Virus record (IMG/VR): IMGVR_UViG_3300031555_005249
Length of the DNA: 64,000 nucleotides
Source: a virus
Direction: 5' to 3' (one strand)
Position 1 is the stretch's first letter. Each line of letters begins with the position of its first letter. A program made the translations under genes and the position numbers. Shown piece by piece: positions 6,188 through 19,593 of this stretch. The notes below the pieces were generated by a model, which was not told the origin of the DNA, searched no databases, and worked only from the letters and a program-made list of their open reading frames with translations.

Positions 6188-6667
6188 GTGGAAATAATTG
6201 GATTAATTATTTTAATAGCTGGATTAATATTTATTGGATTTGACTATGGACGTATGTTAATTAAGAATCGGCGCCTATAGGCAAAATTAGGTGATGATTC
6301 GGCGCCTTACACACCTACAAGGAATATTATGGTAATGGATGAATATTGCCCTTATTTAGTTAAATTAACGACACTATGTATTAAAGCTCATGGAGATGCT
6401 AATATTAAAATTACAAAATATGATAGTAGTCAAGAGAATGTTGGTGTGATTAAAGTGTATTTTGATAATGATGATGAACTATTGGTTTATTAGTATGGTA
6501 AAGCAAAGATTAAAGAGTTAACAAATAGAGAAAAGAAGAATTATGCTAATAAAATTTTTCTTGACTATAAGTTACCAGAGGGTGCGGCCGGCGCAGTAAT
6601 AAAAGATTTAGGATTAATGAATCACATGGTTTATTTCGGCTTTTGTGATGAAAGGAGTGTAAAATGA
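6188..6667 (+). CDS. hypothetical protein with N-terminal TM segment, TAG-recoded (2 in-frame TAG)
   Basis: GTG start after an AAAAGGAGA RBS. Frame stays open across 159 codons with only two TAG codons, no TAA/TGA. Terminal TGA overlaps the ATG of 6664 (ATGA). Confidence 0.4.
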
Positions 6668-7071
6668 GTAATTGGGCAAAAACAGGTGAAGCTTATTTTG
6701 GAGATTCTTTTGATAGAAAAATAACTCTTGGACCTGGGGAATTGAGTTTTAGCGCTAATAATTGCGTGATAGATCAAGATGCTTTATCTTCTATAGTAGG
6801 ATATGATAGTGCTAATACTTATGCAATGGCAACTAGTTATGAAAAGCCAATAAGTATAGGCTACTGTGGAGATATAAGTGCTAAGGCAGATTCTGTTAGC
6901 GCTTTACAAGTGGATATTTCAGCAAGAGTAGATCAGCTTGAAGAGAAGCTTGATACAGTAATGGCGCGCATTGATGAGTTAAAGCAGTCTGTTTCACGTA
7001 CTTCAAGATTGCGTTCGTTATTAAGAACGTTGCATTATAATAGCGAAGTTGAAAGTGGCGCCAACTTTTGA
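6664..7071 (+). CDS. hypothetical protein
   Basis: ORF-track ORF, RBS GAAAGGAG, no TAG. Confidence 0.55.
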   Translation: MSNWAKTGEAYFGDSFDRKITLGPGELSFSANNCVIDQDALSSIVGYDSANTYAMATSYEKPISIGYCGDISAKADSVSALQVDISARVDQLEEKLDTVMARIDELKQSVSRTSRLRSLLRTLHYNSEVESGANF

Positions 7072-7328
7072 TGTAAGCTGCTAAGGGTGCAGATTGGCGC
7101 ATGAACCAACACGATTTTGCTACGATTTTAATTGAACTTGCTTTTGATAAAAGGCGGCATGACAACAGATTGTTGCAAAACTATTAAAGATGATGCGATA
7201 AGGAAAATATAGAAAAGAGTATATCGTCGAAAAATTGGCAAATTAAGGTAGTATTATGGAAAAAATTTTGGACAAAAATAGATACAATTACTACCTTAAT
7301 TTTTATATAATAGTGAAAGGAGTTAGTA

Positions 7329-7526
7329 ATGACTCGTGAAGAAATAATATTTTAGTTAAAGGAGATGCGCGCAAAAGGTTATACGTATAAGTTGATTGCG
7401 AAAGAGGCAAAATTAGATAATCCTGATTAGCTTTATAAGTTTATCAATAGAGATGCTCCTGCTATTTGGGTGAAGCAGCAATTAGAGAACTATTTGCGCC
7501 GAGTAAACGGAAATGGGTCAAATTAA
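7329..7526 (+). CDS. small HTH-like protein, TAG-recoded (2 TAG)
   Basis: RBS AAAGGAG. Translation MTREEIIF[TAG]LKEMRAKGYTYKLIAKEAKLDNPD[TAG]LYKFINRDAPAIWVKQQLENYLRRVNGNGSN, TAA stop. Confidence 0.4.
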
Positions 7527-7551
7527 AGAAAGAGTGATTTACACTCGAAAA

Positions 7552-7689
7552 ATGGCGTACGAATTACGCAAGTTGGGTTTTAAGATTATTAGAGTGATAC
7601 CTGATGAGAAGAAACCTTATTTTGATAATTATGTATTTGAAGATAGTCTTGAGTTACAAGAGGCTATGCGCAAATTATCTTAGGTTTAA
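7552..7689 (+). CDS. small hypothetical protein (1 TAG before TAA)
   Basis: Translation MAYELRKLGFKIIRVIPDEKKPYFDNYVFEDSLELQEAMRKLS[TAG]V then TAA. Weak RBS, so tentative. Confidence 0.3.
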
Positions 7690-7714
7690 AATAAGGAATC
7701 GGAGGTATCGGATA

Positions 7715-8398
7715 ATGATTAAAGAATTTAAGAATAATCCTGTAAGAGATTTTGGTAACGTATATCAGACTATGTTGTCACAGATAAAAAAGAGATATGA
7801 GAAAGATCCTGTACAAGCTGGAGAATTAGCTATTAGTTTTATTGAATATGTATTAACAGGTGATATTAGTAGTGACGATGATATTATTGAAGGCTTTGTT
7901 GAAGGATATAAGGTTACGACTAAAAAGAATCAAGATAAATATGATGCTAAGGTCGCTGCAACAAGAGACGCGCTAAAGCCAATTGCAGATATGTATAATA
8001 GGGGTATGACACAGGCGGCGATTGCGCGTGAGCTAGGTGTTCAGCCGCCCGCTATTTCAAAGAAAATGTCTACCATTCGTACACAGTTTCCAGAGTTGTT
8101 AGATAATGAAGGAAAATTAAAGAAAGTTTCCGAAAATTCTGGAAATAATGGAAAGTTTCCAAAAAATGAGGAAAGTATAGAAAAAGTTTCTGAAAATTCT
8201 GGAAATATTAAGAAAGAAGAAGAAAGTTTAGAAACGTTTCCAAGTTTCCAAAGTTTCCACAATAATAATAACTATAATAACAATAATAACTAGAATAATA
8301 ATAATGAAGTTTCCATTTCGCCTCGCGGCGAGTCAGGGCTTCGCCCCGACACCCCTGCGGCTTCGCCGATAAAGAAGATTGGAGGGTTTGAGTTTTGA
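7715..8398 (+). CDS. HTH DNA-binding protein (sigma-region-4-like motif GMTQAAIARELGVQPPAISKKM) with repeat-rich C-terminus; 1 in-frame TAG
   Basis: RBS GGAGGT. Internal ATG of ORF 7604..8293, continuing through the TAG at 8291 to a TGA at 8396-8398. Contains GTTTCC iteron-like repeats at the DNA level (see repeat feature). Confidence 0.5.
8120..8260. repeat. iteron-like array, 6 copies of GTTTCC(A/T) followed by an AT-rich AATAATAAC tract
   Basis: GTTTCC at about 8126, 8155, 8186 (GTTTCT), 8236, 8244 and 8253. The last three are tandem with ~8.5-bp periodicity. The AT-rich low-complexity stretch spans 8261-8310. Confidence 0.4.
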
Positions 8399-8790
8399 GG
8401 GGAGTATATGTAATTGCTGATGATATGGGAAGAGTTTACTATGTGGGACAGAGTGAATAGTTGGAAAATAGAACATGGGGACATTTAGCTAAAATAAAAC
8501 AAGATGAGAATAAATATAAGAAAAATAAATTATATTGGATATTGGGTAGATTGAATGATTTAAAAGTTGGGCTTCATTGTTATTTATTAGAAGAGTATCC
8601 GTCATGGAATAGAATCGATATTAAGACAAGAGAAAAAGAAAATATTCGATTGTTAAAACCTGTATTAAATACTTAGGTTCCTACTGATTGCATTTGTTAT
8701 ATGAAGAATATTTGGAATGCGGTAACAGCGGCAGTTCAGGCAGATGAAAATGGAAGATGGGATTTTAAAGGATGTAGGAAAATATGGTGA
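8395..8790 (+). CDS. small GIY-YIG nuclease-family protein, TAG-recoded (2 TAG)
   Basis: TTG start overlapping the upstream TGA. Translation ..RGVYVIADDMGRVYYVGQSE[TAG]LENRTWGHLAKIKQDENKYKKNKLYWILGRL... carries the GIY-YIG signature (GVYVI...VYYVGQS...R...H). ORF-track piece 8461..8676 lies in this frame. TGA stop. Confidence 0.5.
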
Positions 8791-8877
8791 AGATGTGGAG
8801 AAATTATAGTAGAGTGGAGAGTTGTCCTGCGACCGAATCCAGAACCACTTCCACTCATCTCTCGTCTTCGTTATCCC

Positions 8878-8910
8878 TATTGATTTATAATAAAATATAT
8901 GATATAATAA
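8878..8910 (+). promoter_or_regulatory. plus-strand sigma-70-type promoter, TTGATT-17-TATAAT
   Basis: ttgatt at 8880-8885, tataat at 8903-8908, spacer 17. Confidence 0.55.
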
Positions 8911-8942
8911 TTATAGAAAATATAAGAAAGGAAATAATACCA

Positions 8943-9314
8943 ATGAATATTGAAGATATGATCATGAATGGTGCATCTGAAGAAGAGATTGCAGAAGCTA
9001 TAGACCAGATTCGCGCCAAGAGAACCTTGAAAATGGAAGAAGAGCGTCAGGCGCGCGAATCTCAAAAGAAGAAAGATGAAGAGCAGACCGCGAAAGAGGC
9101 GCTTAAGGCAGAGGCTCGCGCGCATTTCATCAATGCTGTACTTGCATATAGTGAGGCTTTTGACCTTTTGGAAGAGGGAGAGAGCTGGACTGAAGAAGAT
9201 CTAAAAGAGGTGGAAGAGTACCTTATTCAGATTGAAGGAATAATTCCTATGTATGCTAAGATGATGAAGAAGAAAAAGGAATTCGGATTTGGAGATCTTT
9301 TTGGATTGATATAA
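8943..9314 (+). CDS. hypothetical E/K-rich coiled-coil protein
   Basis: Internal ATG (MNIEDMIMNGASEEE...) of ORF 8784..9314 with RBS AAGGAAATAATACCAATG. TAA stop, no TAG. Confidence 0.5.
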   Translation: MNIEDMIMNGASEEEIAEAIDQIRAKRTLKMEEERQARESQKKKDEEQTAKEALKAEARAHFINAVLAYSEAFDLLEEGESWTEEDLKEVEEYLIQIEGIIPMYAKMMKKKKEFGFGDLFGLI

Positions 9315-9606
9315 GCGCCGGTCCAGGTTATAGAAGTATAAATATAGAGAATAGAGCGTTGGGTAAAACCCGGCGCTCTTATTGTTTTACCTCTTGACGC
9401 GACGAAGGCGCATTGGCGCCGAGGAGCGAAAGTTAAAAATTTTTCAAAAGTAGATAATTGTATTACCTTAATTTTAATATAACAATGACAAAGAAATACA
9501 TTGTCACTAAGAAAGATTGTAACGAATTATTAAACTACTTAATTTTATAGTCATTATAAAAGTCATTACAATCTTTCCAATACTAAAAGAAAGGAGATGA
9601 ATTATA

Positions 9607-10314
9607 GTGAAACTTGTTGAAGGTAAAATAACTTTAGCTAATTTGGCTACTTGGCTAGGAGTATCTGCAGGCACCCTGCGCAATAATAAAAGTAAGTATT
9701 TAAATATTTTAGCTCGCTATTGCCGATATCATGAAGAAGGAACTACCAAAAAGACTCTTTATATTGATGAAGTATACGAAGCAGAATATTCGGCGCTATA
9801 GGGTCCAAAACCTTATCAAAGAGTAAAAGAGTTAACAAGAGAGGGTTGGAGCGCAGAAGGGCTAGATAGTTGTGCTCTTGTTGCAAGTCGTAATTTTCCT
9901 ATTCTATAGCAAGAGGGATACACAATTACAGAAAATACCAATTATAATTATACTTGTTAGAGCAGAACGGAACTTTGGGGCAGTCCTATGAAGCGCACAA
10001 ATGGTGAGCTTGGCTATTGTCGTTATGAGTATTGTAAAATTGGACCTTAGGGCAAGCTTGTTCCGCTTAATGAGGAAGAATAGAAGATTAAGCGCTAGAT
10101 CACAGAGAAATACTTTGGTAATTTAGAAGATTTTACTCTTGGGATAGCTGATGATATTAAAACTGGTAAGATTACTGCGGAAGAGGCTGGTATTGCATTA
10201 GCTAATTTAGGTAGTCATGGAGAATATTTAGCTTGGAAGAATGAACTTGAGGCTAGACTAGGTTGTAAGATTTATAAAGGAACAAGAATACATAATGAAG
10301 AGAGTGCGTTTTAA
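9607..10314 (+). CDS. HTH-domain protein (N-terminal ITLANLATWLGVSAGTL), TAG-recoded (about 7 TAG)
   Basis: GTG start after an AAGGAG RBS. ORF-track piece 9607..9801 continues in frame through TAG codons to a TAA at 10312-10314. No TAA/TGA inside the 236 codons. Confidence 0.45.
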
Positions 10315-10914: not shown

Positions 10915-11160
10915 ATGAAACAACCAAAAATCGCGGGCGTTATAGTGGAAAGCACTGGACTAGAGCGATGACGGCTCTTTGCGATTGTCCGCGGCCCGAG
11001 CATATGCGCGTGCGCGCTATAGAGGTAGAATTAAGGGAAAACAGTGACTGCGCCAAACAACTATTTTTCGGTCGGTATAATATGGAAGAGATGGTAGATT
11101 CTGGAAACGGGGCTAGCCGGTGGCTAGCGACCCGCGCAATTATGAACAAAGTGTGAACAA
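10915..11160 (+). ncRNA. GC-rich structured element, candidate ncRNA of unknown family
   Basis: About 245-nt island of ~60% GC in a ~30% GC context. It holds several perfect local hairpins (AGAGC-gatgacg-GCTCT; TATGCGCG-tg-CGCGCTATA; GGCTAGCC-ggt-GGCTAGC) and long-range complementarity (CGCGGG at ~10922 with CCCGCG at ~11135). A bidirectional terminator follows at 11180-11215. Overlapping ORFs on both strands (10878..11156 and 10940..11149) translate to Arg/Ser-rich low-complexity sequence. Confidence 0.3.
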
Positions 11161-11179
11161 GGGCGCAGATAAAAAAAAC

Positions 11180-11215
11180 AGAAGGCTTTACCCTCTGTTT
11201 TCTTTTAGTGACATT
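11180..11215. terminator. bidirectional rho-independent terminator
   Basis: Hairpin AACAGAAGG-ctttac-CCTCTGTT flanked by an A8 tract upstream and TTCTTTT downstream. Terminates the plus-strand element and minus gene 11222..11464. Confidence 0.5.
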
Positions 11216-11221
11216 TGGCGC

Positions 11222-11464
11222 TCAATCCTCTGTCACCTCTTCCTCTCCGTTTTTATCATACAATTTTCCGTCTGTACAACAGCCGTCATAGGTCAGGCGC
11301 ATATATTCTATCCAATGATGACCGCAGTTATGACATCTGCGCTCTATTGAGATTATCTCGTATAAGTCACCATTCTGTTCGGTGACATCTATCTCGGGGT
11401 CACTTGAATTATAGACCTTTTCAAACTCGCCGCATTTCGGACATTCGTATTCTCTTGTTTTCAT
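11222..11464 (-). CDS. zinc-ribbon protein (CPKC...CHNC)
   Basis: ORF-track ORF with TGA stop. Two CxxC pairs. Confidence 0.55.
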   Translation of the reverse strand: MKTREYECPKCGEFEKVYNSSDPEIDVTEQNGDLYEIISIERRCHNCGHHWIEYMRLTYDGCCTDGKLYDKNGEEEVTED

Positions 11465-11748
11465 TCTTCTTCCTCGCTTTCTTCGGGAATATCATAAGAT
11501 AGGATTGTTCCATAGTATATGGCAGTATACAAATTGCGCCATCGTTTTTCGCAATTAAGACATTGATAAGTTTCCTCAACGAAGCCGTTGTTGTCATTTG
11601 GATATTCAAATGGATTTACTCCACTTCCATCATTCCAAACGATATTATCAGATTTGCAAAAAGGACACACAATCCCTGCTTTGGGAAGTCTTACCATAGT
11701 ATTATTGGCGGTATAGTTTCCTGTTTGTAATTTCTTATATATATTCAT
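11461..11748 (-). CDS. zinc-ribbon protein (CPFC...CLNC), acidic C-terminal tail
   Basis: ORF-track ORF. Its TGA overlaps the next start (ATGA). Confidence 0.55.
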   Translation of the reverse strand: MNIYKKLQTGNYTANNTMVRLPKAGIVCPFCKSDNIVWNDGSGVNPFEYPNDNNGFVEETYQCLNCEKRWRNLYTAIYYGTILSYDIPEESEEEE

Positions 11749-11784
11749 TCCTCTTCCTCGCTTTCGTAGTGGGGGTGACTTTCG

Positions 11785-12255
11785 TCACCCCTCGGTAAAG
11801 TAGGTGTCAAATTCGCCTTTAGTTTTAAGCGATTCAAGACCTTTCTTCGTGTATCTCGTCAAGTCAAGCTTAAAGTATTCACCGCCTTGCTTGAACACTA
11901 TCATTTTACCCGCCTTGACGATTTTACAGTAGTCTGCATTTTCCGATATAGCGGTTTCGATTGCTTGGATAATTCCGTTCTTAGTTTTATCCTCTTTCAC
12001 TACCCTCTCGCGCTGTGTCTTTTGCTTATACTCGGTTGATTTAGCTTTATGAACCGTTGCGCTAACTCGATTCTCTTTAGCTTTTGCGGTGAGTGCTTGT
12101 TCTTCTTCGTTGTCGATATAATCGTTATCAAAGAGCCAAAGGTCAACCGCCTCTTGCCGTGAGCATTTAAGCATACGCATATTCAGCTCTATTGCCTCAT
12201 TCGGTACTCGCACTGTGCGCCCGTTCTCAAGGGTATAAAGGCTATAATCTGCCAT
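11785..12255 (-). CDS. hypothetical protein
   Basis: ORF-track ORF with TGA stop. Promoter at 12290-12322. Confidence 0.55.
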   Translation of the reverse strand: MADYSLYTLENGRTVRVPNEAIELNMRMLKCSRQEAVDLWLFDNDYIDNEEEQALTAKAKENRVSATVHKAKSTEYKQKTQRERVVKEDKTKNGIIQAIETAISENADYCKIVKAGKMIVFKQGGEYFKLDLTRYTKKGLESLKTKGEFDTYFTEG

Positions 12256-12289
12256 TGGTTTTTACCTCTCTTTCTGTCCTCTTGACATA

Positions 12290-12322
12290 TATATTATACC
12301 ACACTCTTGGTCATTTGTCAAG
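12290..12322 (-). promoter_or_regulatory. sigma-70 consensus promoter, TTGACA-17-TATAAT, with AT-rich UP-like tract
   Basis: Plus tgtcaa at 12316-12321 and attata at 12293-12298. Upstream (minus sense) AAAAAATTTTTCAAAAAC tract. Confidence 0.65.
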
Positions 12323-12368
12323 AGGTTTGGTAAAAGTTTTTGAAAAATTTTTTTGGTATGAGGGAGAA

Positions 12369-12779
12369 TTACTCTCCCTCTACCTCGTCTACTACCCCGT
12401 AATTAAGGGAGTAGTATGCAACTTTCTTTTCAAGGGTGCGCTTAAAGTCTGCGCTCTTGGACACGATAGCGGTAATCATCTGTGACGATACGTTATCTCC
12501 GTTAGCTCTCTTATACTCTTTGATAGAATCGACCTTGAGGAGTGAGCCAACGGTCATTCCCTTTTCATCTACACACTCGGCGAGAGCGTCCTTGATAAGT
12601 TCGGTTACTGCGAGAGCGTCTTTCTGCGCAGGAGTGAGAGAAGCGGACTTTGAGTTCTTACGGGAGAGAAGCTCTATCTCGTGAGCCATAACATCTGCCC
12701 ACTCGGTTTTGCCGTTCTCTATGAGGAACGCTTTGATGTTCTCAAAATTCTCTCTCTTGGTGATTTTCTTTTCTGCCAT
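12369..12779 (-). CDS. small early protein, paralog family member
   Basis: ORF-track ORF with TAA stop inside the hairpin loop. Paralog of 3777..4166 and 13351..13755. Confidence 0.55.
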   Translation of the reverse strand: MAEKKITKRENFENIKAFLIENGKTEWADVMAHEIELLSRKNSKSASLTPAQKDALAVTELIKDALAECVDEKGMTVGSLLKVDSIKEYKRANGDNVSSQMITAIVSKSADFKRTLEKKVAYYSLNYGVVDEVEGE

Positions 12780-12856
12780 AGTTTTCTACCTTTGCGATCT
12801 GTGACCGCCCTTTCAAAATTTTTTATTTCAAGAGGATTTTCCTCTTGATTACATAT

Positions 12857-12889
12857 ATATTATATCACAAGTTTGTGATTTTGTCAAGG
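12857..12889 (-). promoter_or_regulatory. P1 promoter, TTGACA-17-TATAAT
   Basis: Plus tgtcaa at 12882-12887 and attata at 12859-12864. Confidence 0.65.
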
Positions 12890-12996
12890 GGTTTTTGAAA
12901 AGTTTTTCAAAAATTTTTTATTTTTTTCAGTGGTTGCAACTACGGGACGATGCCTCGCAAGGTCGTTCTATCCGTCACCGCCCCTTGACTACGATA

Positions 12997-13029
12997 ATAT
13001 TATATCATAAAAAGATAAATTTGTCAATA
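12997..13029 (-). promoter_or_regulatory. P2 promoter, TTGACA-17-TATAAT, ~130 bp upstream of P1, with conserved leader ATTATCGTAGTCAAGGGG
   Basis: Plus tgtcaa at 13022-13027 and attata at 12999-13004. The 25-nt block ccccttgactacgataatattata recurs at 15301-15325. Confidence 0.55.
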
Positions 13030-13080
13030 GAAAATGGGAAAATAATTTGCACAAATTTGAGAGGAATTTTGGTGAGAAAA

Positions 13081-13097
13081 TTGTGCAACTTGCACAA
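13081..13097. promoter_or_regulatory. palindromic operator-like site TTGTGCAAcTTGCACAA
   Basis: Perfect 8-1-8 palindrome, with an additional half-site TTTGCACAAA at 13047-13056. The same motif occurs at 15409-15425 and 19508-19525, and half-sites at ~15375, ~16819, ~18296 and ~19079. Confidence 0.45.
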
Positions 13098-13140
13098 AAA
13101 CGCACAAATCGGCCCAGCGGCGGCCGCCGTTGGGCCGGTC

Positions 13141-13169
13141 AAAAAAAGACCTCTGCCGTCGCAGAGGTC
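13141..13169 (-). terminator. rho-independent terminator (minus) plus adjacent GC hairpin 13111-13136
   Basis: Plus A7 then hairpin GACCTCTGC-cgtc-GCAGAGGTC, which reads on minus as hairpin followed by a U-tract. Second hairpin GGCCCAGCGGCGGCCGCCGTTGGGCC. Confidence 0.5.
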
Positions 13170-13350
13170 TATCCTCGAGGTTGACCATTCTCGCTTTCTC
13201 GCCACTCCTTGCGCATAGGGGACTTTGGTTTTAATGGTCTGCAAAGGCGTGTGATTTGAACACACATCTGTTGGAAACGAAACCAACTGTTCTTCCATTA
13301 AACTACCCTTTGTTATGTATGAGGGGCGCATTTGCGCCCCTGTGCCTCAC

Positions 13351-13755
13351 TCACGCAAGGCGAAAGTAAGTGACCTTTTTGTCAATGGTCTTGACTACAT
13401 CACCGCAGTCAACGAGCTTTTTAAGCATAGAGGAAACTCGCTGTGAAGATGTTTCCTTACCATCTGCCCACTCAAACTCTGCGATACGAGAATCCTTTGC
13501 TATCGCACCGCACTGCATACCCTTTACATCGGTTGCTTCTGCGAGAACATCATGAATGAGGTCAAGGAAAGTATCAACTTCCTCTGCGCGCTTTGCGCTG
13601 ACCTTACCACTCTTGCTTTCAAGCTGACCGAGCTTCTTTTCGGCAAACTCGATTACTTTATCCATAGGGATTGTGGTCGGCTCTCCGCTTGCCATCTTGA
13701 TGATTTCCTCATACATCTGCTTCTGTGTGTACTTGATTTCCTTGATTTCTGCCAT
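13351..13755 (-). CDS. small early protein, paralog family member
   Basis: ORF-track ORF with TGA stop. Paralog of 3777 and 12369. Confidence 0.55.
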   Translation of the reverse strand: MAEIKEIKYTQKQMYEEIIKMASGEPTTIPMDKVIEFAEKKLGQLESKSGKVSAKRAEEVDTFLDLIHDVLAEATDVKGMQCGAIAKDSRIAEFEWADGKETSSQRVSSMLKKLVDCGDVVKTIDKKVTYFRLA

Positions 13756-13832
13756 AATTTTTTTCCTCTCTTGCTATTAGGTTGCAACCCTTTAATTTTA
13801 TTTATCAGAGGTATTCCCTCTTGATTACATAT

Positions 13833-13865
13833 ATATTATACCATACTTTTTGGTATTTGTCAATA
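13833..13865 (-). promoter_or_regulatory. sigma-70 consensus promoter, TTGACA-17-TATAAT
   Basis: Plus tgtcaa at 13858-13863 and attata at 13835-13840. Confidence 0.65.
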
Positions 13866-13906
13866 GGTTTTTGAAAAATTTTTTATTTTTTTTCTTGGGT
13901 AGAGGG

Positions 13907-14626
13907 TTATTCACCCTCTACCTCTTTGCGCTTATGAAAGGGATATACCCATTCACCCTCTGGAGTTAAGCAACCGAGTTTCGTGCGCTCTTGGAAGATA
14001 TTACAACCTCTTTTTCCAAGTTCACAAAGAATACGGAGTTCCCATTGAACATCGGAAAGTGCGGTATGTTCCTCAACAAAATCTTTATCTTGGTTAAGAA
14101 ATGCGGTTACACCCTCAACAGAGGTCGGTATATATTTACCACTTGGAGTGCGGAGTTCGTGTTCGTTGCAAAATGCGATATAATCTGCGGTAGAGCATAT
14201 GTCGTATTGTGCATTACACCATATATCTATAACCTCGATTTTGTCAAGTGGATTCAAAATACCGAGCGCAGTTGCGGTTCTGCGGAATTTGTCCTCGTCA
14301 AACTCGGAGTTATAGGCAAAGCCATACTGTATGCCATATCGGTCAATATCTCTTGCTATTTGCTCAAATATCTGTTTTTCGGTACGGAGTATTGCCGTTC
14401 CGTTCTCAACATTCAAGTCAAACTTTGCGAGTTTTTCTGCTTTGACGAACATATCATTCAAGAGCCAAATGCGGTTGTGATAATGTTTGCCTACAAGATA
14501 GTCTTTGCCTTTGAGTATCTTATACTTAAAGGTTGTTAAGTCAACATCTGCTATACAATAGCCTATGTTAAGTAGTGTTTGGGTACAACACCCTGCGGTT
14601 TCGGTATCAAATACCATAATGTTCAT
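13907..14626 (-). CDS. DEDDh-type 3'-5' exonuclease (DnaQ-like)
   Basis: MVFDTETAG (Exo I D-x-E motif) and HTALSDV (Exo III). 239 codons with no TAG, TAA stop. Confidence 0.65.
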   Translation of the reverse strand: MNIMVFDTETAGCCTQTLLNIGYCIADVDLTTFKYKILKGKDYLVGKHYHNRIWLLNDMFVKAEKLAKFDLNVENGTAILRTEKQIFEQIARDIDRYGIQYGFAYNSEFDEDKFRRTATALGILNPLDKIEVIDIWCNAQYDICSTADYIAFCNEHELRTPSGKYIPTSVEGVTAFLNQDKDFVEEHTALSDVQWELRILCELGKRGCNIFQERTKLGCLTPEGEWVYPFHKRKEVEGE

Positions 14627-14683
14627 TTTTTCTTTTCCTCTCTTTCTGTCATAGGGAGTAGCCCTCGCTCTCCACTCGACATA

Positions 14684-14716
14684 TATATTATATCACATCT
14701 TGACGAATTTGTCAAG
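14684..14716 (-). promoter_or_regulatory. sigma-70 consensus promoter, TTGACA-17-TATAAT
   Basis: Plus tgtcaa at 14709-14714 and attata at 14686-14691. Overlaps the 3' end of upstream gene 14712..15158. Confidence 0.6.
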
Positions 14717-15158
14717 AGGTTTTACAAAATTTTTTCAAAATTTCAAAAATTTTTTCGGGCGGAAATGCGTCACCCTTAGTCCACTCAAGGCGGTTGCGCT
14801 CTTCATCGTCAAACAGTATGCCCTCACTCTTGGCTACGGACGATTTGGGTGTGCCATATGGAACGATATGCAATTCATCAAAAATAACGGACTTCAAGTG
14901 CTTTTTGAGCCATTTGCGCTTGGCTTTAGTGACCGCCTTGTTATAGTCCTCAGTTGCGGCTTTAGACAGCCACGATATAACACCTATATGAACGCCATTG
15001 CGCTGAGCCTTATTCAATGCTCTTGCAAGTGCAGACATATTGTGCATAGGTCTTGCTTCTTCATATGGGCGCGTTCGCTTGGCTTCAAGGTCATCGAGCC
15101 AGCCTTCGACCGCATAAAGGTCAGCAACGGTGCCGTCAAGGTCTAAATAAATTGTCAT
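14712..15158 (-). CDS. HAD-superfamily 5'(3')-deoxyribonucleotidase-like protein
   Basis: N-terminal IYLDLDGTVADL (DxDGT HAD motif I). ORF-track ORF with no TAG. Confidence 0.6.
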   Translation of the reverse strand: MTIYLDLDGTVADLYAVEGWLDDLEAKRTRPYEEARPMHNMSALARALNKAQRNGVHIGVISWLSKAATEDYNKAVTKAKRKWLKKHLKSVIFDELHIVPYGTPKSSVAKSEGILFDDEERNRLEWTKGDAFPPEKIFEILKKFCKTS

Positions 15159-15190
15159 TTGGTTTAGTTCCTTTCTTCCTTACTGCTCTT

Positions 15191-15223
15191 ATATTATACC
15201 ATACTTTGAGCGATTTGTCAAGG
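15191..15223 (-). promoter_or_regulatory. P1 promoter, TTGACA-17-TATAAT
   Basis: Plus tgtcaa at 15216-15221 and attata at 15193-15198. Confidence 0.6.
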
Positions 15224-15315
15224 GGTTTTTGAAAAATTTTTTCAAAAATTTTTGAGTGTCCACTGATTAGCAAGTCCATTTCACTGCTTTTGTTTCTCAC
15301 CCCTTGACTACGATA

Positions 15316-15348
15316 ATATTATACCACAAAGGGCGCAAAAAGTCAAGC
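15316..15348 (-). promoter_or_regulatory. P2 promoter, TTGACT-17-TATAAT, with conserved leader
   Basis: Plus agtcaa at 15341-15346 and attata at 15318-15323. Same conserved block as at 12981-13005. Confidence 0.55.
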
Positions 15349-15408
15349 GGTTTTGGGAATTTTCTTTTCGTCAATTTGCACAAACTTTTGGCGAAAAAAT
15401 GCGTGGAA

Positions 15409-15425
15409 TTGTGCAATTTGCACAA
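15409..15425. promoter_or_regulatory. palindromic operator-like site TTGTGCAAtTTGCACAA
   Basis: Second copy of the 8-1-8 palindrome, with half-site TTTGCACAAA at ~15375-15384. Confidence 0.45.
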
Positions 15426-15459
15426 AAACGGCGCCACACCGATCGGTGGCGCGCCGACC

Positions 15460-15486
15460 AAAAAGAGGGAGATTAATCTCCCTCTA
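15460..15486 (-). terminator. rho-independent terminator overlapping stop of 15473..15682; GC hairpin 15431-15452
   Basis: AAAAAG then hairpin AGAGGGAGAT-TA-ATCTCCCTCT. The TAA stop sits in the loop. Confidence 0.5.
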
Positions 15487-15682
15487 TTATGATTTTATTG
15501 ATAACTTTTGCATAGTCTTCTTGCGCTCTTCGGAATGCTTGTGCCGCAGTATGCAAAGGGCATTCTTCGCAATCAATTTCGCCGCACTGTATATGAATGC
15601 AGGGGTCAATCATTATAGCTTCAAGAGTGTCGTGCTGTTCTGTTGCGGTTATTGTGACTATGATTTTCATATTTACCTCCAA
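15473..15682 (-). CDS. hypothetical small Cys-rich protein
   Basis: ORF-track ORF with TAA stop. Confidence 0.5.
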   Translation of the reverse strand: MEVNMKIIVTITATEQHDTLEAIMIDPCIHIQCGEIDCEECPLHTAAQAFRRAQEDYAKVINKIIIEGD

Positions 15683-15933
15683 ATTAAATTGATAAGATAA
15701 TAAGTATTCATCGCAAATAATGCGACATTAAGTATTACAAGATTTATGCGCCTTGCGCTAAAGCAAAATGCGGTTGCGATTGCCGAGCCGATGAAGAATA
15801 ATACTGTCATATCGGCGCCACACATAACACCTATTGCGCAAGCGGTATAGATTAGTGCGGTGATATCGGTGATATCAAATTCATAGGGGCGGTCAAGGCT
15901 GAAATAGGTTTTTAGTTTACCAATCAAAGTCAT
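15673..15933 (-). CDS. small membrane protein
   Basis: ORF-track ORF, hydrophobic throughout. Confidence 0.5.
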   Translation of the reverse strand: MTLIGKLKTYFSLDRPYEFDITDITALIYTACAIGVMCGADMTVLFFIGSAIATAFCFSARRINLVILNVALFAMNTYYLINLIWR

Positions 15934-16105
15934 CTACCTCTTCTTCCTCATAATCATTAGTATAATAATATTGCGTGGTTTTGAACTCTTTACCACAACC
16001 GCATTTATATTTGCGACTTGCGACAATTTGCTCTCCGTCCTCTTCATATTTTGCCGATAAATATTTAACTTGGGCGGTGCTACCGCAATTTGGACATTTA
16101 ATCAT
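15917..16105 (-). CDS. zinc-ribbon protein (CPNC...CGC)
   Basis: ORF-track ORF with acidic C-terminal tail. Confidence 0.5.
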   Translation of the reverse strand: MIKCPNCGSTAQVKYLSAKYEEDGEQIVASRKYKCGCGKEFKTTQYYYTNDYEEEEVDDFDW

Positions 16106-16305
16106 TTTAATTTAAGCTCCTTTCTAATATTGATAATTCCACGAAATTCTGCGGTATAGATTGCTTCACAGTGAGGGCAACAAACTTTAGCCTCAAAATC
16201 TGCTTCATACCCGTCAAAATTCCATATCTTTGCATCCACATCTCCACAGAACAAGTCATCTCTGGTTATAAGTTTATCGCAATTTGGGCATTTAATCATT
16301 TTCAA
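16102..16305 (-). CDS. zinc-ribbon protein (CPNC...CPHC)
   Basis: ORF-track ORF. Confidence 0.5.
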   Translation of the reverse strand: MKMIKCPNCDKLITRDDLFCGDVDAKIWNFDGYEADFEAKVCCPHCEAIYTAEFRGIINIRKELKLK

Positions 16306-16489
16306 ATTCTCCTTGATATTCTCTTATTGTGCAATATCCACTCCAACGCCATTCAAGGCATTGTTGATTGATATATTCTTGTGCCTGTTCTTGACTATCA
16401 AAGATAGGCGGTTTATTATCTCCTATGAATCCTTTATGCAAGAAGCCGTTTGGACAAGAGCGAGTATGAATATAAATTACATATTGCAT
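16292..16489 (-). CDS. hypothetical protein (MQYVIYIHTRSCPNGF...)
   Basis: Internal ATG of ORF 16292..16825. The upstream part of that ORF overlaps the tRNA and promoter, so it is discounted. Confidence 0.45.
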   Translation of the reverse strand: MQYVIYIHTRSCPNGFLHKGFIGDNKPPIFDSQEQAQEYINQQCLEWRWSGYCTIREYQGEFEND

Positions 16490-16509
16490 AAGTATTACCT
16501 CTCTTTTTT

Positions 16510-16584
16510 TGGTGAAGCGAATGGGAATTGAACCCACAACGCAGTTGAATAGTGTCAACCTCATTACCTTTGTGATACCGCTTC
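16510..16584 (-). tRNA. candidate amber-suppressor tRNA (anticodon loop contains CUA), CCA encoded
   Basis: Minus-strand read GAAGCGGTATCACAAAGGTAATGAGGTTGACACTATTCAACTGCGTTGTGGGTTCAATTCCCATTCGCTTCACCA. Hand fold gives a 7-bp acceptor stem (GAAGCGG/TCGCTTC, one GU) with discriminator A + CCA, a T-arm GTGGG-TTCAATT-CCCAT with canonical TTCAA T-loop, and an anticodon arm GTTGA-CACTAT-TCAAC whose loop centre is CTA. The D-arm is short (3 bp) and the anticodon loop is 6 nt by hand, so it is non-canonical or my fold is imperfect. Sits between genes under a consensus promoter ~7 nt upstream. Confidence 0.55.
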
Positions 16585-16595
16585 TTATTACATTT

Positions 16596-16628
16596 ATATT
16601 ATACCATATAATCTTGCTTTTGTCAAGA
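16596..16628 (-). promoter_or_regulatory. sigma-70 consensus promoter driving the tRNA, TTGACA-17-TATAAT
   Basis: Plus tgtcaa at 16621-16626 and attata at 16598-16603. The predicted TSS falls a few nt upstream of the tRNA 5' end. Confidence 0.6.
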
Positions 16629-16779
16629 GGTTTTCGAAAAATATTTGCAACTATTTTTCTTATCTCCGATACTTTCCTACTCAAAGCTTTCGTGTCCGTT
16701 CTCTTGTTGTACACCAAGTTTCTGATTTCCATTCCTTGCAAGTTAATTTCTCCGCACGAGGTTCCCCCTCTTGACATTA

Positions 16780-16812
16780 TTATTATATCATACAATCGGG
16801 AAAATGTCAAGT
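16780..16812 (-). promoter_or_regulatory. second upstream promoter (P2-type), TTGACA-17-TATAAT
   Basis: Plus tgtcaa at 16805-16810 and attata at 16782-16787. TGCACAA half-sites at ~16819 and ~16860. Confidence 0.5.
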
Positions 16813-17013
16813 GGTAATGTTGCACAAAGTTTCAACAAAAAAATGGCGGGAAGTGTACAAAATGCACAAAACGGAACGCGCCGGCCGGGCTCGTTCCGCT
16901 CGGATTTCAGGCAAAAAAGAAAAAACCCAGAACTCATGAAAAGCTCTGGAAATTTGTTGAGAGGTCTACTTCGTGGAAATTCGGACTTGGCGCGACCGCC
17001 TTCGTCCGTCAGC

Positions 17014-17316
17014 TTAATGGCTGAAGTGTTTCAACACGTCTTGTACATTGTACTCATTTTCATCATCACTCATAATTATAATTTTATTTTCCCATTCAGC
17101 AGGAATGCTTAAAATTTTAAATGTTTCCTTTAAGAATGAAATCATATTCGTACAATCATTTTTTTGATTGTCAGAATGAAAGAGAAGGGCGCCCAACTCT
17201 TCACAATAAAGTGCATGAAGTGGATAGTCTTGCGCCGAGAGGGTTTCCCAATCAAGGGGAGTAAGTGATGATTCAAAAGAAGTGATGACAAGAGCGTGGA
17301 TGAAGTGATACTTCAT
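17014..17316 (-). CDS. hypothetical protein
   Basis: ORF-track ORF with TAA stop. Confidence 0.5.
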   Translation of the reverse strand: MKYHFIHALVITSFESSLTPLDWETLSAQDYPLHALYCEELGALLFHSDNQKNDCTNMISFLKETFKILSIPAEWENKIIIMSDDENEYNVQDVLKHFSH

Positions 17317-17357
17317 ACCGCGTGACCTCCTTGTATCTCTTATTTCTTTTTACATTT

Positions 17358-17390
17358 ATATTATAATATAAAATTTTATAAAAATCAATG
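17358..17390 (-). promoter_or_regulatory. sigma-70-type promoter, TTGATT-17-TATAAT
   Basis: Plus aatcaa at 17383-17388 and attata at 17360-17365. Confidence 0.55.
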
Positions 17391-17398
17391 GGTGTGGA

Positions 17399-17605
17399 TT
17401 ATTCCACACCCAAGAGTTCCTTTATTTTATTGACTACTTGCTCTTGTGCTTGTTTCAGAATGTAATAATCACAATTATCAAGTGTTGCAATATAATCATC
17501 TACCGCTATGCGGATTTCAATTTCATTACTATTATGATTAAGATCATACTCCTTAATGATTTCTTTTTCATTGATTTCTACGCCCGTAGTAATCTCTATA
17601 TACAT
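17399..17605 (-). CDS. hypothetical small protein (MYIEITTGVEINEKE...)
   Basis: Internal ATG of ORF 17399..17725 with an AAAAGGAGAAAACAAT RBS. The stop lies in a hairpin loop. Confidence 0.45.
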   Translation of the reverse strand: MYIEITTGVEINEKEIIKEYDLNHNSNEIEIRIAVDDYIATLDNCDYYILKQAQEQVVNKIKELLGVE

Positions 17606-17648
17606 ATTGTTTTCTCCTTTTGCGAATTTCCAAATTTTTCCAATGCGC

Positions 17649-17906
17649 CTACCAAGCGACTCGGATATGATATCTACCTTCAAAAAGGTTTTTTTCAATC
17701 TCAGCCTTGTAGCCAAATTTTTCAAGATTCGCTCTTATGAGTTCGACCTCATCTTTGGAAACCTCTTTTACTCCACTGAAATAACCTTGTGAAGCCCTTT
17801 TTTTGATGAAGCGCAACATCTCTTTCATTGCCCACGAATGCATGAATTGGTTTTGATTATTTTCTGCCATCTCTCTTGCTTCCTTTGCGGTCATAGGGTT
17901 TTTCAT
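17649..17906 (-). CDS. hypothetical protein; stop is TAG with a 22-codon in-frame extension to TGA
   Basis: ORF-track ORF. Stop codon is TAG (plus cta at 17649-17651), followed in frame by AHWKNLEIRKRRKQYVYRDYYGRRNQ then TGA. Confidence 0.5.
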   Translation of the reverse strand: MKNPMTAKEAREMAENNQNQFMHSWAMKEMLRFIKKRASQGYFSGVKEVSKDEVELIRANLEKFGYKAEIEKNLFEGRYHIRVAW

Positions 17907-17935
17907 AAGTATTTCCTCTCTTTCTTTTAGTATAT

Positions 17936-17968
17936 ATATTATACCATACTTTTATATATTTGTCAAGT
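17936..17968 (-). promoter_or_regulatory. sigma-70 consensus promoter, TTGACA-17-TATAAT
   Basis: Plus tgtcaa at 17961-17966 and attata at 17938-17943. Confidence 0.6.
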
Positions 17969-17980
17969 AGTTTTTGAAAA

Positions 17981-18205
17981 TTATTTGAAAAAAATTTCAA
18001 GCACAATTACATCGTCGCAACAACCCTCAATAGTTATTTCCATACTATCTATCTTGCGGTTAGCATACTCTTTAATATGCTCACATTCTTTAACATACCA
18101 ATCGATTGATTGAGCACCAAGCCATTGTTCTGCTTTGAGTAAGAAGTTGTCATAAATGCGGATTTTATCTATGTTGTAGATAAGCGGAAGTTGTGCAAGT
18201 GTCAT
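17981..18205 (-). CDS. hypothetical small protein
   Basis: ORF-track ORF. Confidence 0.5.
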   Translation of the reverse strand: MTLAQLPLIYNIDKIRIYDNFLLKAEQWLGAQSIDWYVKECEHIKEYANRKIDSMEITIEGCCDDVIVLEIFFK

Positions 18206-18235
18206 AAGTCATTTTCCTCTCTTTCTTTTACACTT

Positions 18236-18268
18236 ATATTATACCACAAATATCGGGAATTGTCAATA
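18236..18268 (-). promoter_or_regulatory. sigma-70 consensus promoter, TTGACA-17-TATAAT
   Basis: Plus tgtcaa at 18261-18266 and attata at 18238-18243. TTTGTGCAAA half-site at ~18296. Confidence 0.6.
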
Positions 18269-18384
18269 GGTAATAATCAACAAAGTTTTGCGCCGATTTT
18301 TGTGCAAAATGCCAGCCCACAGATAAAACGGCTCGGCGCGCCCGATGCCGAGCCGCCAAAAAACAAAAGAGGGCAATCGCCCTC

Positions 18385-18765
18385 TTAGGTTTGATATTTA
18401 GTTATCTCTGTGGAAGAGCTTTGCGCCACCATTAGCGAAATACACCTTTGCATTGTATCGAGTTCAACCACTCTGATGACTTTGCCTTTAGCATACGCAT
18501 ATCCGCACTCCCAAGCTGATCCAAGGTCACCATTGGCGCCTTCGCAAAAATAGAGAATTTCATCACATTCATCTATTGCTTGAACGTCGTGTTGGAATAC
18601 CTTGCGCGCCCATTCGGAGTTAGGTAAAGCTTTAGCATTAGGTATCTCTAATTCGTGGGGAACGTAAACTTTATATCCTAACTGTCGTAAGAGTTTTGCG
18701 TGCTTGTTTATTCTGTCCTTTTGGCTTTCGGTAAACATAGCACTTGCTATATAAAACTTTTTCAT
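18385..18765 (-). CDS. nucleoside 2-deoxyribosyltransferase-like protein
   Basis: N-terminal FYIASAMF plus GSAWECGYAYAKGK resemble the Nuc_deoxyrib_tr family signature. TAA stop. Confidence 0.5.
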   Translation of the reverse strand: MKKFYIASAMFTESQKDRINKHAKLLRQLGYKVYVPHELEIPNAKALPNSEWARKVFQHDVQAIDECDEILYFCEGANGDLGSAWECGYAYAKGKVIRVVELDTMQRCISLMVAQSSSTEITKYQT

Positions 18766-18790
18766 ATCTCACCTCTTGATAGTGGATAGA

Positions 18791-19009
18791 TTATTCATCT
18801 ATCCACTCTTTTACTTTATAGGCTGTAACCTCGACAATATCAGCGGTGAATTTTATCTCTCCCGTAAAGTTATAGATTACGTAAGTATTACCTCTGTTAT
18901 TTGTCGTAAACTCTCTTGCAAACTGAATTGCCATACTAAGATCGTCAAAATCAGCAATATGTTTGCCGTCCGCATAGACGCCATAGTCAAGAATGTCAAA
19001 TTTTACCAT
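18791..19009 (-). CDS. hypothetical small protein
   Basis: ORF-track ORF. The stop lies in a hairpin loop (AGTGGATAGAT-tattc-ATCTATCCACT). Confidence 0.5.
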   Translation of the reverse strand: MVKFDILDYGVYADGKHIADFDDLSMAIQFAREFTTNNRGNTYVIYNFTGEIKFTADIVEVTAYKVKEWIDE

Positions 19010-19041
19010 AATATTAATACCTTCCTTCCTTTACTGTGCCT

Positions 19042-19074
19042 ATATTATATCATATTACTTGCCTCTTGTCAATA
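19042..19074 (-). promoter_or_regulatory. sigma-70 consensus promoter, TTGACA-17-TATAAT
   Basis: Plus tgtcaa at 19067-19072 and attata at 19044-19049. TTTGCACAAA half-site immediately upstream. Confidence 0.6.
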
Positions 19075-19107
19075 GGCATTTTGCACAAAATTTTGCGGCG
19101 GGTCTTG

Positions 19108-19416
19108 TTAACAATATACAAGACCCATATCACGCCAACGGAGAATAGAAATTTGAGAGCAGGCGCGCCCGACCTCAAGCGCTTTTTTCAAGGTACTTTC
19201 GCGATGGCTCTTGTCTATGTAATAAACTCCAGAACTATACCATATACCACAGTTGCCTTCGTATGCCTTAACGGCGTTGATTGCTTCGCGCGGGTCACGG
19301 GTTTCGATACCTTCGGTGGCTACTTGGTAGCCTGTTTTGAACGTGACGCGCTGACCCTTTTTGAGAGTTAAGCCGTCATTATCTTTAAGTTTGAGAATCG
19401 AGCGAATGTTAATCAT
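19108..19416 (-). CDS. hypothetical protein
   Basis: ORF-track ORF. Confidence 0.5.
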   Translation of the reverse strand: MINIRSILKLKDNDGLTLKKGQRVTFKTGYQVATEGIETRDPREAINAVKAYEGNCGIWYSSGVYYIDKSHRESTLKKALEVGRACSQISILRWRDMGLVYC

Positions 19417-19446
19417 AGGTGTTTCCCCTTCCTTTATCTTACGTAC

Positions 19447-19479
19447 TTATTATACCATAAAAGCGGGAATTTGTCAATA
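19447..19479 (-). promoter_or_regulatory. sigma-70 consensus promoter, TTGACA-17-TATAAT, with upstream palindrome 19508-19525
   Basis: Plus tgtcaa at 19472-19477 and attata at 19449-19454. TTTGTGCAAcTTGCACAA sits ~30 bp upstream of the -35. Confidence 0.6.
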
Positions 19480-19593
19480 GGCAAAAGTAACAAAGTTTTG
19501 ATAGTAAATTTGTGCAACTTGCACAACTATGCGTAAAGCGTCACGCCGCGGCCCTTGGCGTGACGGCGAAAAAAAAAGAGGGCGCAAGCGCCC

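Follow-up and report, generated by a model that had tools for sequence, protein, structure and literature searches.

In a 64,000-nucleotide stretch of viral DNA (IMG/VR record IMGVR_UViG_3300031555_005249; hereafter, the window), a regulatory cassette recurs on the minus strand and is confirmed as a real repeated unit that marks the boundary between early genes. Read in its own direction, each unit holds an intrinsic terminator, a GC-rich hairpin, one or two dyads of the form TTGTGCAA-n-TTGCACAA, a promoter (P2), a structured leader, an A-tract block of the UP type and a second promoter (P1). We think it probable that the cassette operates as a boundary module between short early transcription units, with its dyads as putative sites for a host factor, and that the window is part of a ~135 kb phage that is recoded at TAG and infects gut Clostridia.

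The cassettes are set in an array of 14 minus-strand promoters (12293-20179) that fit TTGACA-17-TGnTATAAT, 13 of them at 12/12 and one at 11/12. By sequence match, these are predicted sigma-A/sigma-70 promoters of the extended -10 type (TTGACA, 17±1 spacer, TGn, TATAAT), and two classes can be told apart. In class A promoters (first base of the -35 at 12321, 12887, 13863, 14715, 15221, 16626 and 17966) the -35 is immediately preceded by a block of A/T tracts, AAAAATTTTTCAAAAAC(C)YC, which has the features of an UP element, the site of the C-terminal domain of the polymerase alpha subunit (an A/T tract at ~-38 to -59 with a proximal A-run at ~-41 to -46). These blocks also give 10 matches to the CodY consensus AATTTTCWGAAAATT (up to two mismatches, vs 0.3 in mononucleotide shuffles), probably a low-complexity effect of phased A/T tracts. 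Upstream of the class B promoters (13027, 15346, 16810, 18266, 19072 and 19477) come, 5' to 3', an intrinsic terminator, then a GC-rich hairpin and then the TTGTGCAA-n-TTGCACAA dyad, once or twice; the dyads themselves are not UP elements, having a conserved core that contains G/C, dyad symmetry and a reach to -106. Three class B promoters lie 125-184 nt upstream of a class A promoter, forming tandem P2/P1 pairs (13027→12887, 15346→15221 and 16810→16626). An earlier note on this DNA had proposed such tandem promoters, as well as full cassettes at 12935-13170 and 15250-15486; the consensus matches at three places bear out the former, and all elements were found at the latter, in minus-strand orientation.

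Intrinsic terminators, each a GC-rich stem-loop followed by a U-run (≥5 T), were found at 13147-13170, 15464-15485, 16926-16950, 18367-18386 and 19578-19595, and the pairs of terminator and GC-rich hairpin fold with z-scores of -2.8 to -5.3, bearing out the U-tract terminator and GC hairpin of the note. The sequence of the GC hairpin varies among copies and its stem is kept by compensatory changes between the window and the related viral locus L120; because short T-runs come after it (GTTT, GTTTTTG or GTTTTAT), it is probably a second, back-up intrinsic terminator.

The occurrence of the dyad is far above chance. The window contains three perfect 17-nt palindromes (at 13081, 15409 and 19510); with up to three mismatches allowed there are six matches vs 0.53 expected, a number reached in none of 100 shuffles. 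A position weight matrix trained on non-window sites only gives eight window matches that score 14 bits or more, vs one in the shuffled window; apart from the match at 4247, all of them (seven) fall within 13081-19526. The palindrome also retrieved ~24 viral loci that encode homologues of window proteins (35-77% identity); together with the window, these related loci provide 260 consensus promoters and 31 kb of upstream sequence. Around these clade promoters, exact 8-mers occur at 3.5/kb in the 120 nt upstream, 0.58/kb overall and 0.27/kb in the 100 nt downstream (a 13-fold higher density upstream than downstream), and the 109 upstream copies compare with 0.7 in shuffles. The same palindrome, proximal site and -35 hexamer are found in a second, unrelated and small phage type (loci L016, L042, L044, L051 and L067), which has a TerS/TerL/portal module, the standard code and 42-49% GC. 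Enrichment past the copies first listed, which had been set beforehand as a test of the palindrome, was found in the clade scan.

The dyad is symmetric beyond its best-matched half. In 98 distinct 'half-sites', the flanks retain a degenerate partner half (T-8 0.78, C-4 0.72, A-3 0.93, A-2 0.64), with the inner CAA-n-TTG as the best-kept part of the 17 bp, showing that all sites are 17-bp dyads. The half-sites reported earlier are therefore present but are full dyads, each flanked by a degenerate partner. This anatomy supports the footprint of a dimer, and symmetry, positional conservation and phasing, the sequence-level part of what defines a dimer operator, are seen here; together with the conservation of the dyad across a deep clade, they agree with the note's proposal of a site for a dimeric transcription factor of phage or host, which we retain as putative.

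Dyad positions are quantised relative to the promoter. TTGTGCAA starts 16/17 nt upstream of the first -35 base in 22/260 promoters, with smaller peaks at 27, 37, 49 and 59 nt. The spacer between facing halves is 16 nt (19 cases) or 26 nt (17 cases) in phage-like genome matches, and 15-17 nt (62/121) or 26-28 nt (51/121) in an independent viral set. Taking the start of the -35 hexamer as -35, the dyad centres are ~-44 and ~-77 or ~-87, and those in the window are at ~-76 (promoter 19477), ~-54 and ~-97 (13027), and ~-64 and ~-106 (15346); tandem dyads are 33 or 43 bp apart. These quantised positions suggest that all sites lie on one helix face relative to the polymerase. Among clade promoters, no dyad overlaps the core promoter or the transcribed region. 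In 17 distinct cases (loci L010, L209, L210, L221, L225, L239, L244, L250 and others), the distal dyad is flanked on its outer side, at a distance of 8-9 nt, by a mirror-image TGTCAA, so that the whole forms a symmetric element of 60 bp, TGTCAA-N8-TTGCACAA-N16-TTGTGCAA-N8-TTGACA, far above chance and commonly with a -10 on one side only.

This geometry bears on whether the palindromes could be nucleic-acid structures (extra terminator hairpins or cruciforms) instead of protein sites. They do come just after two real hairpins, and a terminator scan flags 13081-13097 and 19510-19526 as weak terminator-like hairpins. However, most sites have a single well-matched half with which no hairpin is possible, an 8-1-8 palindrome leaves a 1-nt loop, no consistent T-run comes after it, and it is phased to the -35 that follows, whereas the end of the preceding gene sets no such register; we find this explanation the least credible of those considered here. 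Nearly as hard to sustain is the view that the repeats are one duplicated promoter cassette, spread by recombination, in which the dyad has no function of its own. The full copies at 12935-13175 and 15250-15490 align with one another and with two copies in L120 (71% mean column identity over ~240 nt), and promoter modules have been swapped between orthologous genes: orthologues of one gene use either promoter type (13/28 being dyad-type), indicating interchangeable modules and arguing against a gene-specific regulon, which we rejected on this ground. Yet the aligned cassettes have diverged except in the dyad, the core promoter and the initial transcribed sequence, which do not vary, and hundreds of loci have the dyad amid unrelated flanks, with its distance from the -35 fixed.

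We compared the dyad with ten known operator families in the 31 kb upstream of the clade promoters, and none was enriched (0-3 matches). CRP (TGTGA-N6-TCACA) gave 2 matches vs 0.8 in shuffles, the dyad here being TGTG-N7-CACA; FNR (TTGAT-N4-ATCAA) gave 0 vs 2.4; Rex (TTGTGAA-N4-TTCACAA, or TTGTTAA-N4-TTAACAA in Clostridia) gave 2 and 2 with up to two mismatches; the Spo0A 0A box (TGTCGAA) gave 0 vs 3.1; and the TraR/LuxR tra box (TGTGCA-N4-TGCACA) gave 1 with up to one mismatch, the spacing here being N3. Matches were likewise 0 for LexA of Firmicutes (GAAC-N4-GTTC), 1 for the CcpA cre (TGWAANCGNTNWCA), 3 for Fur 7-1-7 (TGATAATNATTATCA), and 0 for both TnrA/GlnR (TGTNAN7TNACA) and AraR (TTGTACGTACAA). 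That the 8-mers are DnaA boxes or a known operator family, marking an origin or a known regulon, is very improbable in our view. The half-site TGTGCA is that of the tra box, and TTGTG..CACAA resembles Rex and CRP, but the TGTG-N7-CACA spacing is off by 1 bp from the CRP, Rex and TraR geometries. TTTTGCACA matches the relaxed DnaA consensus TTWTNCACA (30 upstream vs 3.2 in shuffles), and the relaxed box is enriched only because of this fit. When T1, T2 and T4 are required, only 21/98 sites conform, the flank preferring A to T at T1/T2, and no arm of the three perfect palindromes does. In the literature searched, the 8-mers, with or without regulator context, were met only in primers and CRISPR targets and as C/EBP sites of eukaryotes, and written consensus forms of the dyad found nothing; a transcription start site study of C. 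phytofermentans reports only an A-rich UP-like region.

The same composite site is present in host promoters. A scan of 185,579 species genomes with the pattern TTGCACAAN{12,42}TTGTGCAAN{8,9}TTGACA (22 specified bases) gave at least 80 matches vs ~4-9 by chance; among the matches listed, nearly all are from gut Clostridia and 46 distinct ones lie in loci without phage homology. In these host-like matches the spacer is 15-16 nt in 26/46, vs 6.5% expected with 12-42 nt permitted. The composite site, TTGCACAA-N16/26-TTGTGCAA-N8/9-TTGACA, lies upstream of purC, nrdD, glutamine synthetase and secreted-protein genes of gut Clostridia. Downstream genes confirmed with Pfam encode SAICAR synthetase, NrdD, type III glutamine synthetase, MatE, PadR and Lrp/AsnC proteins, several further sites precede secreted-protein genes, and the site, which Coprococcus catus carries, has an ordinary chromosomal context in two Coprococcus isolates. 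No recurrent regulator gene, a sign of autoregulation, was seen beside the host sites, the neighbours of which are heterogeneous (judged by N-termini only: HrcA-, RF2-, MurE- and SpoVT-like proteins and glycosidase look-alikes). Because this architecture precedes housekeeping genes in Clostridia genomes, and in view of the second, unrelated phage type, the excess in the genome scan and the 46 non-phage loci, the factor would most probably be host-encoded.

Alternatively, the dyad could be the operator of a phage regulator that shuts off or autoregulates early transcription, the host copies being prophage-derived or coincidental. The gene directly downstream of cassette 1 (12369-12779) encodes a protein with two paralogues in the window (13351-13755 and 3777-4166) and 314 metagenomic homologues. 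It has no Pfam domain and no sequence match in the PDB; in its structure model (pLDDT 81), the C-terminal ~75 residues form a winged helix like those of forkhead, BlaI, H1 and HlyU (Foldseek probability 0.96-0.99, with weak E-values of 0.04-0.3), making it a plausible DNA binder. All three paralogues are predicted to be expressed from these promoters, a weak dyad (4247-4263, 15.9 bits) lies immediately next to the promoter of 3777-4166, the third paralogue, and consensus core promoters need no activation. These observations are offset by the Clostridia genes listed above, which the same composite site precedes with its 15-16 nt spacer; by the unrelated small phage type, which has the same layout and, in the fetched loci, no detected homologue of the winged-helix proteins; by the lack of any dyad over the -35/-10 core or transcribed region, the usual location of a repressor; and by the weakness of the Foldseek E-values. 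On this evidence we hold a phage regulator to be unlikely. Other helix-turn-helix candidates named in the earlier note proved weak, with sub-threshold Pfam similarity in 7329-7526 (E = 0.018) and 7715-8398 (E = 8e-4, below the gathering score) and no Pfam hit in 9607-10314.

A tentative extension of the host-factor reading is that TTGTGCAA-n-TTGCACAA is the site of a new and widely conserved global transcription factor of gut Clostridia, captured by at least two phage lineages, and that the winged-helix paralogues may compete with it or mimic it. If so, the factor would span Oscillospiraceae, Acutalibacteraceae, Ruminococcus and Lachnospiraceae and would work from set positions (~-44 and ~-77/-87) on the sigma-A promoters of genes for housekeeping functions and for secreted proteins, and at least two unrelated phage lineages, including the ~135 kb TAG-recoded clade, would use the captured site for a subset of their early promoters.

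The start of the P2 leader is also conserved. TATAATATTATCGTAGTCAAGGGG is invariant in four cassette copies and other leader parts diverge; the conserved leader start reported earlier thus stands, and can be refined as one arm of a long-range RNA stem. Across all loci, TCAAGRGG occurs within 24 nt past the -10 hexamer in 55 distinct promoters, and in 37/55 the CCYCTTGA that comes next lies 52-212 nt downstream and forms the -35 flank of a different promoter. At the variable position of the stem the pairs are G-C (14), A-T (19), G-T (1) and A-C (3), so that 33/37 are Watson-Crick (Fisher p = 1.5e-6), in counts that are de-duplicated and uncorrected for the relatedness of the phages, which lessens their weight for our interpretation. 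The closing stem is present in both the minimum-free-energy and centroid folds of three window leaders (z = -3.2, -3.2 and -2.3). The covariation suggests pairing between the 5' end of P2 transcripts and the RNA transcribed from the P1 -35 flank, and to our knowledge no such arrangement has been described. The stem may sequester and stabilise the P2 transcript 5' end; P1 transcripts cannot form it because their start lies downstream of the partner arm. Rfam, searched at gathering and E-value thresholds, assigned neither the leaders nor the hairpins to a family and detected only the pair of tRNA-like genes presented below. Inverted -35-like TTGACT/TTGACA sequences in the leader were discarded as antisense promoters, having no -10 at a usable distance. 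Separately, P1-type leaders (12828-12848 and 13785-13806, minus strand, and many relatives) begin with ATATATGTAATCAAGAGG and have a local 5' hairpin, TCAAGAGG...CCTCTTGA, and many relatives have GC-rich hairpins directly after the -10 hexamer instead (e.g. TATAATggtgagTTTCGGCC...); 5'-end structures appear to be a general trait of these early transcripts.

Taken as a boundary module, the cassette would work as follows. The terminator and the GC-rich back-up terminator would insulate the next unit against upstream transcription. A dimeric factor of the helix-turn-helix type, most probably from the host, would bind the 17-bp dyads and, from one helix face (~-44, -54, -64, -76/-77, -87, -97 and -106), recruit or stabilise RNA polymerase in a class I/II/III-type manner. 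The sigma-A promoter P2 would then make a non-coding leader of 100-180 nt, the 5' end of which (GUCAAGRGG) would pair with CCYCUUGAC from the next -35 flank, leaving the leader closed and its 5' end presumably protected. P1 would use the same core promoter with the A-tract UP element in place of the dyads, hence independently of the factor, and P2 and P1 together would give each gene both a factor-dependent and a factor-independent strong promoter. Activation by recruitment is favoured by the sequence evidence because the sites avoid the core, replace the UP element, are phased to the -35 and accompany weaker -35s (perfect in 62% of dyad promoters vs 87% of A-tract promoters, p = 5e-7).

Several observations weigh against an activating host factor. 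Class B promoters of the window are perfect-consensus and should need no activator, and a modulating or repressing role for the dyad is possible; the predicted winged-helix proteins that the phage encodes directly downstream of these promoters could be the binders. Most 'host' matches are from metagenome bins, where mis-binning occurs, and Coprococcus genomes account for only three (two from cultured isolates, the other from a metagenome-assembled genome), at sites without a clear -10. Finally, the motif is barely enriched in the complete genome of phage phAss-1 (8 vs 4.8), a distant relative with few dyads, which makes this genome unusable as a positive control; such scarcity fits a dependence on host lineage.

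The genomic context points to a recoded phage. On the plus strand from 22.8 kb onward (22779-64000; also 6188-10314), reading in-frame TAG as sense fuses open reading frames (ORFs), including 39381-48809 (3142 aa, 82 TAGs), 48916-53880 (1654 aa, 32 TAGs) and 60057-62267 (736 aa), and no in-frame TAG occurs in the minus-strand early block (11.2-22.4 kb). The fused ORFs and the TAG-free array indicate that the window is from a TAG-recoded phage whose array is the standard-code early region. The early genes encode mainly small unknown proteins, with a DEDD-like exonuclease, a deoxyribonucleotidase and a nucleoside deoxyribosyltransferase. A protein identical to one of the window is encoded on a 135,217-nt contig, and the structural protein 31017-32069 shares 46% identity with a phAss-1 capsid-region protein and 37% with proteins of Enterococcus phages (134-142 kb). 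A near-identity DNA search of 10-24 kb against catalogued phages gave no match. phAss-1 is a 136-kb gut phage of the 'code 15 clade', recoded from TAG to Gln and with Eubacteriales hosts predicted (PMC10607447), and early genes of recoded phages have been proposed to be translated in the standard code (PMC10607447; Borges et al. 10.1101/2021.08.26.457843). Promoter analysis is absent from both papers, where the word 'promoter' appears 0 times (PMC10607447, 10.1101/2021.08.26.457843). The window resembles phAss-1 and the clades of Borges et al. in size (~135 kb), in-frame TAG in structural genes, standard-code early genes and predicted Eubacteriales/Clostridia hosts. It differs from phAss-1, where dyads are few; the window also lacks a canonical tRNA-CUA, and the anticodon loops of its two tRNA-like genes are irregular.

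The kinds of element assembled in the cassette, namely operator or activator sites, tandem promoters and tandem terminators, are already known; the specific dyad, its sharing between phages and Clostridia hosts, its strict geometry and the pairing of leader and -35 flank are new. The arrays of strong early promoters and terminators in large Firmicutes phages (the host-takeover module of Bacillus phage SPO1/SP82), like those of T5 and the T7 A1-A3 promoters, offer the same picture of many short early units that each start from a near-consensus host promoter (sigma-A/sigma-70) and have their own terminator, and of small unknown genes beside nucleotide-metabolism genes. Unlike in these systems, a subset of promoters here has a 17-bp dyad common to host promoters, in tandem with UP-type promoters, and the genome is TAG-recoded, with the array in its standard-code part. 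As in class I/II/III promoters of CRP and FNR, dimer sites abut the -35 (~-44), others lie helical turns upstream and site-bearing promoters have weaker -35s; the half-site is identical to that of the tra box of TraR (TGTGCA). However, the palindrome here has odd length, 8-1-8, in contrast to TGTGA-N6-TCACA and TGTGCA-N4-TGCACA. Phages are known to carry host-regulator sites at early promoters (Spo0A in phi29-like phages; IHF, Fis or CRP in lambda, Mu and P1), and if the factor is the host's, early expression would similarly be coupled to host state. The Spo0A box of the phi29-like phages is absent here (0 vs 3.1 expected), and, unlike in phi29-like phages, lambda, Mu and P1, the site is common to at least two unrelated phage types and host promoters. 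Stabilisers that hold the extreme 5' end of a transcript in a stem are known from Firmicutes (the ermC and aprE leaders and the SP82 early RNA), and the 5' motif AAGRGG is, as there, Shine-Dalgarno-like; in contrast to these, the partner arm here is the -35 flank of the next promoter, 52-212 nt downstream, and only P2 transcripts form the stem.

How transcription is controlled in uncultured gut Clostridia and in their phages has hardly been studied, and the dyad provides a testable cis-regulatory code for host promoters of Oscillospiraceae and Lachnospiraceae. It is also a sequence marker tying phages to a host lineage, present in the clade and the small phage type and nearly absent from phAss-1. 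The array illustrates the standard-code early programme of a stop-codon-recoded phage, with insulated units, dual (factor- or UP-dependent) promoters and structured leaders, and its promoters are ready, strong and insulated parts for genetic tools in gut Clostridia.

In detail, and on the minus strand save for the symmetric dyads, cassette 1 begins with its terminator (13147-13170; a 10-bp stem then T7, z = -5.3), which ends the unit holding tRNA-like gene 1, and the GC-rich hairpin (13110-13137; found by folding, with compensatory changes vs L120), the probable back-up terminator. The perfect 17-bp dyad TTGTGCAAcTTGCACAA (13081-13097; 23.4 bits, centre ~-97 from the P2 start) and a proximal dyad (13038-13054; centre ~-54), whose one good half reads TTGTGCAA at 13047-13054 of the minus strand, lead to P2 (12999-13027; TTGACA-17-TGaTATAAT in the promoter scan). 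Its conserved initial transcribed sequence ATTATCGTAGTCAAGGGG (12981-12998) includes GTCAAGGGG (12981-12989), the 5' arm of the leader-closing stem; the 3' arm CCCCTTGAC (12883-12891) overlaps the P1 -35, downstream of the A/T-tract UP-type block TTTTTGAAAA-ac-TTTTCAAAAA (12892-12925). P1 (12859-12887; TTGACA-17-TGaTATAAT) is predicted to drive the winged-helix protein gene 12369-12779.

In cassette 2, scan and fold locate the terminator (15464-15485) and the GC-rich hairpin then GTTTTTG (15429-15456). The perfect dyad TTGTGCAAtTTGCACAA (15409-15425; 24.4 bits, centre ~-106) and a proximal dyad (15367-15383; 19.0 bits, centre ~-64) precede P2 (15318-15346; TTGACT-17-TGgTATAAT, from the promoter scan) and its conserved initial transcribed sequence (15300-15317), the 5' arm of which pairs with 15217-15225. 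CCCC and P1 (TTGACA-17-TGgTATAAT) occupy 15193-15225, and P1 is predicted to drive a deoxyribonucleotidase-like gene (14712-15158). Cassette 3 has a terminator (16926-16950) and GC hairpin (16870-16900), both by scan and fold (16870-16950 overall), and dyads within 16811-16869 (an imperfect distal one at 16853-16869, 17.0 bits, and a proximal one at 16811-16827 that abuts the -35). P2 (16782-16810), the leader and P1 (16598-16626) follow (16598-16810 overall), with the 5' arm TGTCAAGAGG (16767-16776) pairing with CCTCTTGACA (16621-16630).

The regions at 16.6-16.9, 18.27-18.38, 19.07-19.13 and 19.5-19.6 kb, once described as partial copies of the cassette, do share its design but are independent dyad-bearing promoters. 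Beyond cassette 3, minus-strand units lie at 18238-18386 (terminator 18367-18386, GC hairpin ~18333-18359, dyad 18300-18316, promoter 18238-18266), at 19044-19088 (dyad 19072-19088 abutting the -35, promoter 19044-19072) and at 19449-19595 (terminator 19578-19595, GC hairpin ~19538-19567, perfect dyad 19510-19526 with centre ~-76, promoter 19449-19477).

Two minus-strand tRNA-like genes are embedded in the array, both scoring above the Rfam tRNA gathering score of 29. Gene 1 (13241-13312; 44.6 bits) sits between the ORF 13351-13755 and the cassette-1 terminator and has an 8-nt anticodon loop, UUUCGUUU; its counterparts in the related loci L120 and L185 keep the acceptor, D and T arms, but the anticodon arm is different in each. 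Gene 2 (16510-16584; 38.9 bits), in the leader downstream of promoter 16626, has a CCA end and a 6-nt anticodon loop, CACUAU, which includes the amber anticodon CUA; blastn of the fetched loci found no homologue. With loops of 8 and 6 nt, neither is a canonical tRNA (a cloverleaf with a 7-nt anticodon loop), and no canonical tRNA-CUA was found within the 64-kb window.

Divergent back-to-back promoters at 22672-22748 (TTGACT-16-TATAAT on the minus strand at 22699; TTGACA-17-TGgTATAAT on the plus strand at 22720) part the early array from the first TAG-containing gene (22779-23951). Its 390-aa product has no Pfam match and no PDB sequence match, is kept in 11 relatives, and carries a stretch resembling sigma region 4 as well as a Cys-rich motif at the C-terminus. 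At 1910-2740 (minus strand), a homing-endonuclease-like gene of the GIY-YIG/NUMOD3 type contains six in-frame TAG codons. The GC content of the early array (11000-16500 and 18000-20000) is 40-43% vs 30-35% across most of the window, partly through the GC-rich hairpins, the coding sequence being richer in G+C too. Finally, the clusters of a related TTGTTCACAA motif that had been described do exist, but their motif is a different one, TTGTGAAYAA on the minus strand, in tandem direct repeats 11 nt apart. This separate repeat (TTGTGAAYAA, TATGAAYAA or TTGTTAACAA) occurs at 20262-20276 and 21690-21775 (minus strand) in direct copies ~11 nt apart, upstream of promoter 20179 and of a weaker promoter near 21600, and may be the site of another factor.

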